Below, piece after piece: positions 31,237 through 35,872 of a stretch of DNA of 64,000 nucleotides. This DNA comes from a virus. The stretch's first letter is position 1, and each line of letters opens with the position of its first letter. The notes under the pieces were generated by a model. The model searched no databases. It was not told where the DNA came from and saw only the letters and a program-made list of their open reading frames with translations. The position numbers and the translations under genes were made by a program. Where the stretch lies: positions 39,830 through 103,829 of the IMG/VR virus record IMGVR_UViG_3300017774_003070; one strand, written 5' to 3'.

Positions 31237-31523
31237 TCATTTTCTCTTGTTGGTAAAAGTCTAGTTAACAACTCATCTAGTTGACCAAAAGGTTTGTACA
31301 TGTTCCAATCATATTTACCATACTGATCAATATCAATTCTGTAACCATCTTTATCAATTAGGTAATAACCAGCCAACTTCTTCTCTCTAATCTGAACTCG
31401 TACATCAAGAAACATAATGATGTTCCAGATACGGTCTACAAGATCACCATGAGCATCATACAAGTCATACCATTCAAGGTAGTTTCCTTTCTCGTCGTAA
31501 ATACAATCACGTATTTCTAACAT
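31227..31523 (-). CDS. Hypothetical protein
   Basis: Packed co-directional ORF. Confidence 0.5.
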   Translation of the reverse strand: MLEIRDCIYDEKGNYLEWYDLYDAHGDLVDRIWNIIMFLDVRVQIREKKLAGYYLIDKDGYRIDIDQYGKYDWNMYKPFGQLDELLTRLLPTRENDWK

Positions 31524-31782
31524 AGCTCTCTTTTAATTCTTCCAACTCACTAGCCAATTCATAACCCCAATCTCGTAGTGCAGAATTAGCAGATCTTAAC
31601 TCTTCTAACTCTTTCTCAATGTCACAGTATTTGTACGCTTCATCAAGGTTCTTTTGCAAATCATATGAATCCCAATCAGAATCAATACGATCCATTGCTT
31701 CTAGAATGTGATCTTTAGCTATTTTCAACCAGCTTATTAGTTGGTTAATGTCAGGACAAGTATAACCTACTGGTGCTTTCAT
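31507..31782 (-). CDS. Hypothetical helical protein
   Basis: TCPDI...ELEELRSANSALRDWG motif seen in phage proteins. Confidence 0.55.
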   Translation of the reverse strand: MKAPVGYTCPDINQLISWLKIAKDHILEAMDRIDSDWDSYDLQKNLDEAYKYCDIEKELEELRSANSALRDWGYELASELEELKESYVRNT

Positions 31783-32078
31783 TTCAAGTAATTGGCAAGT
31801 TTATCAAATTCAGTTACAAATTCTTGCTCAGTAATTTCATCGTAAAGCCCTCTGTAATGTCCGTAGTAAGCAGTAAACTGTTCAAGGGTCATAAGTGTCT
31901 TTGATACACAATTGTTACTCACAGAAGTCAACTGATACTTATGGAACTCTTCTCCCGCCATAGTCAAGTACCAATTACTTTCAATCTTGTGAAACCAATT
32001 GTCTAGTTTCCAAAAAAGAGGAAGCTGTACATCAACCTCCTCTTCTACTACTGTAGTCTTTTTAATTGTTAATCTCAC
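31779..32078 (-). CDS. Hypothetical protein, paralogue of the N-domain of 30802..31236
   Basis: Shared K....E..VDV.[LF]P..[WC]KL.N...K pattern. Confidence 0.55.
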   Translation of the reverse strand: MRLTIKKTTVVEEEVDVQLPLFWKLDNWFHKIESNWYLTMAGEEFHKYQLTSVSNNCVSKTLMTLEQFTAYYGHYRGLYDEITEQEFVTEFDKLANYLK

Positions 32079-32270
32079 TCCAATAGGTTTTAATTACTCT
32101 TCCATTCCTATCTAATAACCTTACTTGCTGCTTCATTTTGTACGGCTTCTTTGGTACTGAGTTCCAGTTGAGTAAAGTTAGGAATGGTAAGGAGAGTAGA
32201 ATGAATATTAGGAAACTCATCATTCATAGTTGTTGTGTCAGCTTAAACCTGACTGTAGTAATACAAAGCA

Positions 32271-32474
32271 TCATTTCTTCTTCTCAATTACTAGTACGAA
32301 ATCCTTATCTTCCACAATTCTCTTACCACTTCTTTCTAGTATTTGCCAGTCAAGTTCAGTAATAATCATTCCAGTTGCAGCCTCAATCTCTTCCTTGGTG
32401 TCAGCAGATGACGTGAAAGGCTTAGGAAAGATCTGTTTAGTGGTTACGGTGTACTTGTACTTCATTTTCCGCAC
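32271..32474 (-). CDS. Hypothetical protein
   Basis: Packed co-directional ORF. Confidence 0.45.
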   Translation of the reverse strand: MRKMKYKYTVTTKQIFPKPFTSSADTKEEIEAATGMIITELDWQILERSGKRIVEDKDFVLVIEKKK

Positions 32475-32785
32475 TTTTCAAATCTAGCAATAGCTTTTGG
32501 ATAAGGCACAAATCGAATCAGAGGCCACGGATCTGTAACATACAATGTATCCTTACGTCCTTTAGTAACCCTGTCATACACACAGCCAGTCTCATAAAAC
32601 ATGGTATCAATACCTTCAATCTTACGAATACAATAAAGTGTATCAGGTGTAGGGTTGCCGTAGATGTTAGTCATAAGTGCGTAGCCTATCTCAGCCTCAT
32701 CTGCCTTGTAATAATCATCTGGTGTGCAAGAAGTAAAGTGAAGAGCTATAATAGCTGCAATCCAAATATTAGTTTTCATGTTCAA
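32462..32785 (-). CDS. Putative lipoprotein
   Basis: MKTNIWIAAIIALHFTS-C lipobox followed by an acidic stretch. Confidence 0.65.
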   Translation of the reverse strand: MNMKTNIWIAAIIALHFTSCTPDDYYKADEAEIGYALMTNIYGNPTPDTLYCIRKIEGIDTMFYETGCVYDRVTKGRKDTLYVTDPWPLIRFVPYPKAIARFEKCGK

Positions 32786-32990
32786 TTAGTTTATAAGTGT
32801 AGTCGTGAGGAATGTAATTCTTAATCTTAGTCTCTGCTTCAACTTCTGTCTTAGCAGTTATACGTTTCGTGTAGATGTACTGATTCTTATTGTCATAGAC
32901 TTGGAATGAGTACGTTGTAGCAGGTCGTTTCAAGCATATCCATAGGAAGAAGATTGAAGCTGCTACTGCTAAAATAATTACTATTGTCAT
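32769..32990 (-). CDS. Small membrane-anchored protein
   Basis: N-terminal hydrophobic helix. Confidence 0.55.
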   Translation of the reverse strand: MTIVIILAVAASIFFLWICLKRPATTYSFQVYDNKNQYIYTKRITAKTEVEAETKIKNYIPHDYTYKLIEHEN

Positions 32991-33046
32991 TGATTTAAAT
33001 TAAAAAGGATTTTGTTGAATGTTCAACTCTTTCCATTGTGTTTTTA

Positions 33047-33082
33047 CAAAACAAAAAGGGAGTCAGCGTTAACCAACTCCCT
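33047..33082 (-). terminator. Intrinsic terminator downstream of the tRNA-like RNA
   Basis: AGGGAGT/ACTCCCT stem followed by a T-run on the minus strand. Confidence 0.7.
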
Positions 33083-33119
33083 ACACCATGAATTAAATAT
33101 CAACCGCGAAGTTGTATTA

Positions 33120-33218
33120 GAAGGCTTTTCAGGACTCGAACCTGAATCATTGTACTATAGTTCCCTATAGCCCGATTTGACTTTAACTTGTACAACTTAC
33201 CCTAGCCTTGGGAGCCTC
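33120..33218 (-). ncRNA. tRNA-like RNA with expanded anticodon loop
   Basis: Perfect T arm TCAGG-TTCGAGT-CCTGA; GAGGCT/AGCCTT acceptor-like stem; CCC/GGG D-like stem; TTGTAC/GTACAA stem enclosing about 34 nt with a GGAA-tetraloop hairpin. Confidence 0.65.
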
Positions 33219-33241
33219 AAACGACCAACCTTATTTTATTG

Positions 33242-33249
33242 CAAAACTA
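33242..33249 (-). promoter_or_regulatory. Bacteroidota -7 promoter element upstream of the tRNA-like RNA
   Basis: TAGTTTTG on the minus strand; no well-spaced -33 element. Confidence 0.45.
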
Positions 33250-33362
33250 AACTAAATTTATCAAGCTTCCTTATCTGGACTAAAAATAATCTTAAGAAAA
33301 GCTAGTAATACAAAAAGTGCTATTGCTGACCAAATCATTCTTTGATGTATTTAATACCTGAC

Positions 33363-33698
33363 TCAGATAACTGATTCAAGTACATTTTTGATTTGTGATT
33401 CAGTTGTAATTCTTTTACCTAATCGTTTAACTACTCCTTCTACATACTTCTGACGTTGAGGATTAGAAGAATAAAGATCTTCTGGTTCAACACTGAGCAA
33501 GTAGAATTCAAGTGAAGAGATGTTCAGAGCCATGCAGATTCTACAAATAGCATCAAACCTTGGAATAGCATTACCCTTCTCAAATTGACTAATGCTTACT
33601 GAAGATTTGAAGTTACTGAGAGTTGCAAGCTCTTGTTGAGTCATCTTTGCGTTATCGCGTAGATGCTTAATTGTTTTTGCAAAATTCATGTTGTGCAA
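33363..33698 (-). CDS. XRE-family helix-turn-helix regulator
   Basis: IKHLR....MTQQELA.....S..SISQFEKG...P......IC.AL. Confidence 0.9.
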   Translation of the reverse strand: MHNMNFAKTIKHLRDNAKMTQQELATLSNFKSSVSISQFEKGNAIPRFDAICRICMALNISSLEFYLLSVEPEDLYSSNPQRQKYVEGVVKRLGKRITTESQIKNVLESVI

Positions 33699-33713
33699 TT
33701 AGATAGAATGAAC

Positions 33714-33778
33714 TACCTTTGATGAATGAAAAAGTTAATAATCATTTTAGGAGTTGTCATTGTTGTAGGCTATCTTTG
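33714..33778 (+). promoter_or_regulatory. Two Bacteroidota -7 elements divergent from the XRE gene
   Basis: TACCTTTG (33714-33721) and TATCTTTG (33771-33778). Confidence 0.5.
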
Positions 33779-33841
33779 TTTCATTCTTCTCAAGAAGATG
33801 TTTATCACATTTACAAACATGGTCTTAGACGCAATCTGGAG

Positions 33842-34054
33842 ATGAAATATGTAACCTTAACTAATGACATGATAAAGCTTTCAAGACTTGCTAACGTACT
33901 TGCAGCTAATGGGTTTACTGTAGAACTACAATTCTCTAACCTAGCTATCACTGTACCATACCAATACAACTTGAATAGTTTCATTAATAGATTACCAATT
34001 ACTAACAGATTTGTAGTAAGAGATCGACAATTAAATATTGAATTGAATGGATAA
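33842..34054 (+). CDS. Hypothetical protein
   Basis: Probable start MKYVTLTND downstream of the promoter; overlaps next ORF. Confidence 0.5.
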   Translation: MKYVTLTNDMIKLSRLANVLAANGFTVELQFSNLAITVPYQYNLNSFINRLPITNRFVVRDRQLNIELNG

Positions 34055-34292
34055 TTTGACAGAGTTGATTGAACTCAATGAGGATAAGCTAAAAGAACAT
34101 GCAGACCTCATTAAAGAATGTAAGCAGGAACTCAAAGAGGTACGAATTAGAATTAGTAGGATAACAAGTGAGTTGAATGGAGAATTATCCGAAGAGAAAC
34201 AATTAGAGACTCGCCTGAATAGACTAAGCCTTCAAAAATCATTCCTCTCCGGTTTGGTAGAAGGTCTGGAGAAGAGGGTGGAGGGGATCTGA
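34047..34292 (+). CDS. Coiled-coil protein
   Basis: Heptad-rich; followed by a hairpin at about 34276-34310. Confidence 0.55.
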   Translation: MDNLTELIELNEDKLKEHADLIKECKQELKEVRIRISRITSELNGELSEEKQLETRLNRLSLQKSFLSGLVEGLEKRVEGI

Positions 34293-34454
34293 CCTCTCCT
34301 TCATCCTTCTAAATTAACTGCCCTACTTGTTTACCAGAATCTCTTGCCCAACTACATTTCAACTTTGTAGCTCTAGCAATTGCCTCAAACATAGTTGAAC
34401 ATTCTGAGATGATTAGTCCATCACTGGTATAGATTTTAAATGGAAATGAGTCTT

Positions 34455-34772
34455 TCATAAATCCTCTATTGTAATACCTTTAGGAAGTACAAATAAGCCC
34501 CAATCTTCGCTGTATTGATCAATTGAAGCTACACTCAACATACCTTTAAGACAGCTTTGATTAGATGCATACCTGAGATAAATTTGATTATTCTCGATTG
34601 CTAATAAGGTCATAGGTTCTTCGTATCCACGAAATTGTACTTCTTCAGTTCTCATTGAGATACCTAAATTCTCATTGTGAACTACTTTGTACACAGGTTT
34701 CAACCTAATAATCACATCTCCTGGTTTAAAGCAAAAGATAGATTGTCCTTCTTTTTCAAATAGTTCTTTCAT
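34455..34772 (-). CDS. Hypothetical protein
   Basis: ATGA overlap with upstream gene. Confidence 0.5.
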   Translation of the reverse strand: MKELFEKEGQSIFCFKPGDVIIRLKPVYKVVHNENLGISMRTEEVQFRGYEEPMTLLAIENNQIYLRYASNQSCLKGMLSVASIDQYSEDWGLFVLPKGITIEDL

Positions 34773-35872
34773 ACTACAGATAATTCATTATTGATTTCAT
34801 CAAGAACAGAATTGTAGTTAGTTTCAGCTAAGTTAGCTTCCTTCTGTGCATGTTTATTCAACTCTTTCAAGTCTTTAACTTCCCTAGCAAGAACAGGATA
34901 TATACGACCAGGATTGTCAGCATCAAATCCATACGTGTTAGCCTCAATAGTACGAATCCTCTTCTCATTAGTCTCAATCTTCCGCATAGCTTCTGAAATA
35001 CCCGCCTTTGCATTCTCCCACTCTTCTCTAAAAGTCAATGCTTCTGTAACTAGACTGCCTATTGATCTTTTGAATGTAGGATTCACTAAAAGTCTGTGGT
35101 GTAATCTCTGTCTATCTACTTGAAAGTTCTCCACTAAATAGTTCTCCACATCAACTTTTTCAGGATCGAATGTAACTGGTACTGGAAGAGTTGTAATCAA
35201 TCCAGAATCATTGTTGTCAGTGTCATCGTCAATGCCTGCGTCGTCATCTGTATCAGAGTCAGACGCTTGAGCTAAAGGGTCAGTCACACCTCCAGGATCA
35301 TCTTTCTTTTTACGTGTGCTCGCCGTCGCAAGGTAAAACACTACAATAACATGGATAAGAAATATCCAGCAAGTAATGTGAATCATTCCAGACTTAATCC
35401 TACCCAATTGAAAAGTAAAGAAGTATTCAACATCTCTAAATCCTTTCAGTGATGTAGCTATGTATGCCACGTTAGCAAACGCAGGAAGAATAGTCAAGGC
35501 TACTGACAGCACAGCATCTGCACATTCAGCAACTACATCCTCACCTAGTTCAATAGCCTTCTTAGCTTCTTTAATCTGATCTCCAATCTGAAACCCAGAG
35601 AATGCAGACACTAAGATCAATGCTACGTGACCAGTCAATCTAACTCCATAAGGAAGTGCAAATAGCTCTACGCTAATTGCAGCAGCCATCATTCCTTCAG
35701 ACAATCCTAATGCTCCTTGAGATATTTCAATACCCAGGAATCTCTTTTTCTTAAACGTTTCTATCAACGCTTTCCCATCTGACTTAGATCTCATAGCTAT
35801 CACAAGGATAATTATGAAACCAAAAAGTACAGACATGGGGATTATACTATTAAACAGTCCTTCTAATCCCAT
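34769..35872 (-). CDS. Multi-pass membrane protein with acidic linker and C-terminal coiled coil
   Basis: About 5 hydrophobic segments, Asp-rich linker, heptad C-terminus. Confidence 0.65.
   Translation of the reverse strand: MGLEGLFNSIIPMSVLFGFIIILVIAMRSKSDGKALIETFKKKRFLGIEISQGALGLSEGMMAAAISVELFALPYGVRLTGHVALILVSAFSGFQIGDQIKEAKKAIELGEDVVAECADAVLSVALTILPAFANVAYIATSLKGFRDVEYFFTFQLGRIKSGMIHITCWIFLIHVIVVFYLATASTRKKKDDPGGVTDPLAQASDSDTDDDAGIDDDTDNNDSGLITTLPVPVTFDPEKVDVENYLVENFQVDRQRLHHRLLVNPTFKRSIGSLVTEALTFREEWENAKAGISEAMRKIETNEKRIRTIEANTYGFDADNPGRIYPVLAREVKDLKELNKHAQKEANLAETNYNSVLDEINNELSVV

Follow-up and report, generated by a model that had tools for sequence, protein, structure and literature searches.

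A tRNA-like unit that cannot decode, downstream of a repressor-like gene in a crAss-like phage from freshwater metagenomes

The locus described here raises the question of whether a 99-nt tRNA-like unit, located on the minus strand of a 372-bp gap between two phage genes, is a tRNA gene with an insert, an RNA gene that no longer decodes, or what is left of a tRNA gene. The window, i.e., the whole stretch of 64,000 nucleotides that was analysed, spans bases 39830–103829 of an IMG/VR record (IMGVR_UViG_3300017774_003070; 103.8 kb, 96% complete). The family-A DNA polymerase of the phage exhibits 26–30% identity to its counterparts in crAss-like phages, cultured as well as uncultured, and the sequencing runs in which the phage occurs are freshwater metagenomes; judged from its sequence, it is a freshwater crAss-like phage. 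The gap is flanked upstream by a gene encoding an XRE-type helix-turn-helix protein (33363–33698), assigned as repressor-like through PHROG repressor families, and downstream by a 73-codon ORF (32769–32990). On the minus strand, the gap contains no ORF of at least 40 aa, and the sole ORF overlapping the unit is a 31-aa ORF starting with TTG (33100–33195); the plus strand carries ORFs of 52 and 42 aa. None of these three ORFs was present in the protein collection searched. A preliminary description of this DNA had proposed a stand-alone RNA with its own promoter and terminator, in which a tRNA scaffold carries a small functional RNA and a hairpin with a GNRA loop takes the place of the anticodon.

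The minimum free energy (MFE) structure of the unit (33120–33218, minus strand) is a cloverleaf, i.e., a four-way junction, both for the 99 nt alone and within 201 nt of surrounding sequence. All the stems, loops and coordinates of the preliminary description were recovered on the minus strand, and the folding energy is ordinary (z = -1.3, versus z = -2.1 for the opposite strand). The ends of the unit form an acceptor-like stem of six pairs, GAGGCU/AGCCUU, one of them G.U, with the 5' strand at 33213–33218 and the 3' strand at 33121–33126. It is directly abutted by a D-like arm, CCC-AAGGCUA-GGG (33200–33212), which consists of a 3-bp stem and a 7-nt loop containing GG and which leaves no linker for positions 8–9. 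The T arm (33128–33146), identified by sequence, motif, fold and Rfam alignment, reads U(U)CAGG-UUCGAGU-CCUG(A)A. Its stem has 5–6 bp, and the 5-bp stem UCAGG/CCUGA with a loop of the UUCRANU type is that of a tRNA. The window contains two copies of the T-arm motif GGTTCRANTCC versus 0.09 expected, and the second copy sits in another tRNA-like gene. The T arm deserves the name of perfect that it had been given. The acceptor-like and T stems together provide 6+6 = 12 stacked pairs, with a bulged A before the T stem, and no CCA is encoded, as previously remarked. In the folding model, the GG of the D-like loop and the canonical T arm could make a tRNA-like elbow possible.

The anticodon arm is replaced by a long arm of 48 nt (33149–33196), predicted to fold into a 7-bp stem, GUUGUAC/GUACAAU, with a branched interior of about 34 nt. 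The inner part of this stem, UUGUAC/GUACAA, encloses 34 nt that include a hairpin read from the sequence, CUAUAG-GGAA-CUAUAG (33155–33170). The last G of CUAUAG doubles as the first G of GUACAA, and consequently both helices can never be complete together. The hairpin singled out in the preliminary description is therefore present, but it shares a base with the stem that encloses it, and its GGAA loop is lost in a diverged strain (see below).

Three further features of this region were recorded. An alternative pairing joins GGGCUAU of the long arm (33167–33173) with AAAGCCU (33122–33128) and stacks on the 5-bp T stem, generating a 53-nt minihelix of the 7/5 "top-half" type that competes with the full cloverleaf and is favoured by the Rfam tRNA model. 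A small spacer hairpin, CAAC-UUCGCG-GUUG (33101–33114, minus strand), can be read from the sequence beyond the 3' end of the unit and matches no Rfam family. In the whole genome, the palindrome TTGTACAA, considered as a possible regulatory DNA motif, occurs at 17 sites versus 3.4 expected, but mostly inside genes, and TGTACA at 82 versus 35 expected, whereas CTATAG is under-represented (16 versus 35); codon usage or restriction-site bias may be the cause of these skews.

The capacity of the unit to decode was assessed with gene finders, covariance models and a deletion scan. ARAGORN with default settings reports no tRNA in the whole window and, when introns are allowed, the only gene found lies at about 59085–59196. 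The unit matches no Rfam family at gathering scores. The Rfam tRNA model (RF00005) yields nothing at E ≤ 10 in 501 nt and reaches 15.1 bits, versus a cut-off of 29 bits, on a 131-nt stretch; this score is attained only by skipping the D and anticodon arms, with GGGCUAU (33173–33167) as the 5' strand. The Rfam/Infernal check suggested for the unit thus returned no family. The body of the unit departs from that of a tRNA, which has a 7-bp acceptor stem, a 2-nt linker and a D stem of 4 bp (3 bp in class II), and an anticodon arm with a 5-bp stem, a 7-nt loop and U33 is formed neither directly nor after one excision. In the deletion scan, every segment of 6–55 nt was removed from the middle of the unit and each variant was submitted to ARAGORN with default settings. 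A single one of the 1,425 excisions passed, as a tRNA-Phe(AAA) with two C.A mismatches in the acceptor stem and a nonsense anticodon. In the control, the insert-bearing tRNA-Leu-like gene of the same phage (about 59085–59196), 564 of the 2,375 excisions passed (24%). The result of the control indicates that the scan has power and that the body of the unit is not that of a working tRNA. These findings demonstrate that the unit cannot decode and is not a tRNA gene with an insert, in agreement with the earlier remark that it has no usable anticodon. Likewise, the cloverleaf-like unit of the preliminary description holds as a discrete, non-coding fold of tRNA-derived appearance, but its acceptor and D parts are poorly tRNA-like and neither ARAGORN nor Rfam calls it.

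The gene used as a control, located on the minus strand, is itself called as tRNA-Ser(AGA) with a 22-nt intron by ARAGORN when introns are allowed. Its passing excisions are spread over the anticodons UUG, CCU, CUG, AGA and others, so that the identity of this gene depends on the position at which the insert is cut.

The signals surrounding the unit differ in strength. Upstream lies TAGTTTTG (33242–33249, minus strand), by its sequence a candidate -7 box of the Bacteroidota type, followed by a putative 5' leader (33219–33241) that shows one change (33237) in the diverged strain X6. The general form of the box, TAnnTTTG, has 60 sites in the window, six of them in non-coding DNA versus about 6.5 expected from density, and its longer form does not recur in the phage. 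The promoter that had been attributed to the unit was therefore not borne out, as the single motif behind it is neither enriched in non-coding DNA nor recurrent. The X6 strain carries a second TAGTTTTGCA just upstream of the candidate box, read from a loose contig end behind 33257. Downstream of the unit, starting 38 nt from its end, lies an intrinsic terminator on the minus strand, with an 11-bp stem containing five G-C pairs (33082–33057) and the tail TTTTTGTTTTG, whose T tract extends to 33047. It is the sole terminator-like site on either strand within 31500–35000 (3.5 kb), a region for which shuffled sequences give 1.4, and no terminator was found between the repressor gene and the unit. 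Thus, the terminator part of the earlier claim is sustained by a strong signal.

Strain variation was followed over 32750–33700 in short DNA contigs from four freshwater runs of four different studies. In one strain (X4), the entire unit is present with two changes only: a U>C substitution at 33149, which converts the basal G.U pair of the long stem to G-C, and a change in the adjoining linker. A single diverged homologue (X6), more abundant and seen in part, shows 88% identity over 33165–33257 (93 nt) and beyond that stretch is diverged but recognisably homologous; the 3' strands of its T stem and acceptor-like stem lie outside the displayed part. In X6, the 3' strand of the long stem is GUGUGA instead of GUACAA (A>G, C>U and A>G). 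Judging by the two differences listed in 33185–33237, in a listing that omits differences within about 20 nt of the aligned end, the 5' strand UUGUAC would be unchanged. On this 5' strand, all six pairs would survive, as U-A, U.G, G.U, U.G, A-U and C-G. The changes pair only as G.U, and therefore the pairing would work only in RNA and only on the minus strand; a rough estimate of the chance of three pair-preserving changes out of three is p = 0.01–0.09. Moreover, the T arm of X6, GUUUGG-UUCAAGU, differs in its stem, and its loop UUCAAGU still follows the UUCRANU consensus. Taken together, the pair-preserving changes and the retained T loop provide weak evidence for selection on the RNA.

Other changes in X6 bear on the idea of a functional RNA carried on a tRNA scaffold. 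Such an arrangement would lead one to expect a conserved cargo and a tolerant scaffold, and X6 has the opposite pattern, with changes in both the enclosed loop and the GNRA loop and a near-identical 5' scaffold. The 5' half of X6 is 96% identical to that of the unit, with flanks that cannot be aligned, so conservation extends beyond the T arm and is highest in the 5' half; conservation confined to the T arm, which the preliminary description had named as a ground for its own refutation, is thus not what X6 shows. In the small hairpin, CUAUAG is kept on both sides and the loop is AAG instead of GGAA, so that the GNRA loop is not retained in this strain. Furthermore, the scaffold itself departs from tRNA geometry in its 6+6 stacked pairs, its bulged A, its 3-bp D stem and its lack of an 8–9 linker. 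In addition, a G>U change at 33215 breaks an acceptor-like pair in X6, barring compensation on the 3' strand outside the displayed part. The idea of cargo on a scaffold is accordingly left without support. The X6 contig carries unrelated DNA upstream of 33257, which indicates that the unit moves as a module together with a leader of about 40 nt.

In the run that yielded X6, an abundant strain is identical over 33259–33354 and then continues into the terminal part of an 89-codon ORF resembling the one in a related locus, L011 (1043–1310 in L011). In that strain, therefore, an additional gene separates the repressor from this region.

The distribution of the unit is narrow. The phage genome holds no paralogue. 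Three parts of the unit, used as exact patterns, had no match in IMG/VR, and two patterns had none in the species genomes. A 22-mer running from the T arm to the 3' strand was not recovered as an exact copy from 185,579 species genomes, IMG/VR or phage records, and blastn against phage and plasmid records gave no match to the unit. The proteins encoded by neighbouring genes, used as bait in IMG/VR, returned distant matches or none. For the repressor, 42 orthologue clusters with 62–94% identity were found, almost all of them in Logan/ENA assemblies. The metagenome scan yielded one relative, L011, whose repressor orthologue is 76% identical and which lacks the unit; its repressor gene is followed by the 89-codon ORF, a normal tRNA-Lys(UUU) and odd tRNA-like units. 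Through the DNA-polymerase alignment, 80 relatives were reached in IMG/VR, 40 of which were searched as whole records. A covariance model built from the unit and run against the phage, 40–43 related IMG/VR records, L011 and other local loci found only the unit itself in the phage and no homologue in the related records or local loci. The closest of the IMG/VR relatives searched (G004; 97,264 bp; loci L097–L102), whose DNA polymerase shows 67% identity, contains neither a tRNA nor a tmRNA gene according to ARAGORN with introns allowed, and shares only three of the 15 small genes around the site. The absence of the unit from 40 relatives, and of any tRNA gene from the closest of them, indicates that it is dispensable and young. 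The relatives lacking it, and the few neighbours shared, indicate that it is restricted to a clade and lies in a variable accessory region. The lack of tRNA genes in the closest relative makes the tRNA-like genes a recent acquisition of the lineage of the window phage.

Two observations concern the tRNA array of L011. A unit at 1574–1698, after the tRNA-Lys(UUU) at 1462–1534, has a perfect 7-bp acceptor stem (TCCGGGA/TCCCGGA) and a D arm, with about 85 nt between the D arm and a T-like arm, and is thus another expansion of the anticodon region. Within 1340–2180, most units of the array are preceded by the word (A)GTAGTCA or by a sequence close to it, about seven times in 850 nt. The word is not enriched in the window (four sites versus 5.8 expected), but the tRNA-Leu-like gene does start with GTAGTCA at 59196.

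Several known RNAs resemble the unit in part. tmRNA combines an acceptor stem and a T arm with the lack of an anticodon arm, and carries an alanine-type acceptor with CCA and a tag reading frame. The first of these properties is common to the unit, but G3.U70, CCA and a tag reading frame are all missing and the ARAGORN tmRNA search finds none, so that tmRNA was rejected. Bacterial Y RNAs such as YrlA, which lie beside the gene for Ro60 (rsr) and are bound through a stem of their 5' and 3' ends (Chen et al. 2014, PMC4201824; Rfam RF02553), are likewise non-decoding RNAs that keep T-arm and D-arm features, and are handled by tRNA enzymes. In contrast, the ends of the unit form an acceptor-like stem. 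Searches for TROVE (Ro60) and RtcB genes in the phage found neither and Rfam gives no match, and a Y RNA locus was discarded on these grounds. Theta (HDV-like) ribozymes adjoin the tRNAs of gut phages, within 5 nt downstream (PMC10879173), and resemble the unit as small structured RNAs linked to phage tRNA genes. The CPEB3/HDV-like model scores 20.7 bits (E = 0.0013 on 131 nt) at 33110–33176 on the minus strand, over the T arm, versus a cut-off of 35 bits. Since the score is below the cut-off, P1 has four pairs when drawn by hand and P2 lacks a partner, the hit was judged a chance match, and no HDV-like sequence was found downstream of the unit.

A different kind of likeness concerns CRISPR repeats. 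The tRNA-like body might serve as a processing and stability scaffold for an RNA anti-CRISPR, or decoy for a defence nuclease, whose 48-nt arm imitates a CRISPR repeat (VI-B or II-C) of a Bacteroidota host; we consider this highly improbable. Type VI-B (Cas13b) repeats have paired 5'-GUUG/CAAC-3' ends, and the long arm runs GUUG...CAAU (CAAC in X4); moreover, when 12 nt are left out, 24 of 36 positions are common to the long arm and the PspCas13b repeat (Prevotella). In a comparison with fixed ends, the likeness of the interior is at chance for two Flavobacterium repeats (p = 0.5–0.8) and marginal for the Psp repeat (p = 0.03–0.1), and the long arm is not among the best matches to Cas13b repeats in the genome. 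It also differs from a VI-B repeat in having no poly-U loop, and the 3' end of X6 is GUGAU. The likeness to a Cas13b repeat is limited to the ends.

These data can be set against four further explanations. The main rival among them is that the unit may be a decaying remnant of a tRNA gene, left from an ancestral array after the repressor gene, in which the anticodon arm and the acceptor geometry have disappeared and no function is left. The tRNA-Lys and tRNA-like units after the orthologous repressor of L011 fit such a history, as do the degenerate acceptor and D parts, the ordinary folding energy and the absence of the unit from 40 relatives in a variable accessory region. Decay does not readily explain why, in X6, the T loop still fits the consensus and all six pairs of the long stem survive in a stretch that has diverged by about 30%, why its 5' half is 96% identical between unalignable flanks, or why a strong dedicated terminator follows the unit; we regard a functionless remnant as somewhat unlikely, yet as an explanation to be taken seriously. 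The terminator enters differently into another account, in which the unit acts in cis at the 3' end of the repressor mRNA: the tRNA-like fold together with the terminator would define this end or shield it, or the fold would offer an RNase P cut site that separates the mRNA from the genes downstream. No terminator separates the repressor stop codon (33363) from the unit, no convincing promoter was seen in the interval from the terminator to the following ORF (32990), and the candidate -7 box is unsupported as a promoter, all of which suits a cis element. In X6, however, the unit stands behind different upstream DNA and is thus not tied to the repressor mRNA, which makes this account unlikely.

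Alternatively, the unit might be a tRNA gene with a small insert that is removed by proteins, the RNA being cut and then resealed by the Rnl2-type ligase of the phage. At a threshold of 80%, ARAGORN indeed reports Leu(UAA) i(37,23) at 33120–33217 with a 23-nt intron, but this loose setting yields 141 calls in 64 kb, which amounts to noise, and the Leu(UAA) model requires two C.A mismatches in the acceptor stem and a mismatched anticodon stem. The precedents are the well-formed tRNA-Leu-like gene of the same phage, with an insert of 22–24 nt, and the tRNA genes with "enigmatic" introns of Lak megaphages (Devoto et al. 2019, PMC6784885), which, like the unit, have tens of extra bases in the anticodon region, too short for self-splicing. 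These are good tRNAs once the insert is removed, whereas the unit is not, its acceptor and D parts being off-pattern. The sole passing excision, with anticodon AAA against a pass rate of 24% in the control, and the tRNA score of 15 bits obtained with the D and anticodon arms skipped, further make a spliced tRNA very unlikely. Lastly, the T arm and 3' strand might mark an attachment site, or might have been captured from the 3' part of a host tRNA gene. It is common for the attP site of a phage to include the T arm and 3' terminus of a tRNA of its host. Nevertheless, a search for tyrosine integrases (Pfam PF00589), which did not extend to serine recombinases, found none in the 96%-complete genome, the 22-mer lacks an exact match in the collections listed above, and the T stem differs between strains; an attachment site thus appears barely credible.

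The reading that we favour over these, namely an RNA gene that derives from a tRNA, is confined to one lineage and has ceased to decode, is put forward tentatively, as possible though short of probable. It is based on the MFE cloverleaf, the T-arm motif, the lack of a minus-strand ORF of at least 40 aa, the terminator, the failure to decode and the pair-preserving changes. Against it stand the ordinary folding energy, the unsupported promoter, the absence from 40 relatives, the G>U change at 33215 and the array of L011. In this reading, the half comprising the T arm and elbow would be kept under some selection, for which the evidence from strains is weak. The evidence as a whole is thin and consists of sequences from a single phage lineage.

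For a tRNA-derived RNA gene of this kind, the following mechanism can be proposed. The unit would be transcribed on the minus strand. Transcription would start at a weak promoter belonging to the unit or would reach it by read-through of the upstream XRE-type repressor gene, and would stop at the intrinsic terminator (33082–33047). The top half of the RNA may then be recognised by RNase P, RNase Z, TruB/TrmA or a CCA-adding enzyme, and the RNA would act as a stable tRNA look-alike. Its likeliest role would be to act as a decoy for a host factor with tRNA-binding or tRNA-cutting activity, as suggested by the shape of the unit and by the two other remodelled tRNA look-alikes of the phage. Alternatively, it might serve the repressor transcript as a 3'-terminal signal for processing and stability.

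If the unit is a remnant, it would be a record of the decay of tRNA arrays in phages, and a warning that a perfect T arm is not in itself proof of a functional tRNA mimic. Should it instead be a working RNA, it would represent a third design among the anticodon-remodelled tRNA look-alikes of this phage, and would support the notion that the tRNA shape is used beyond decoding in some freshwater crAss-like phages, for example in decoys against tRNA-targeting defences.
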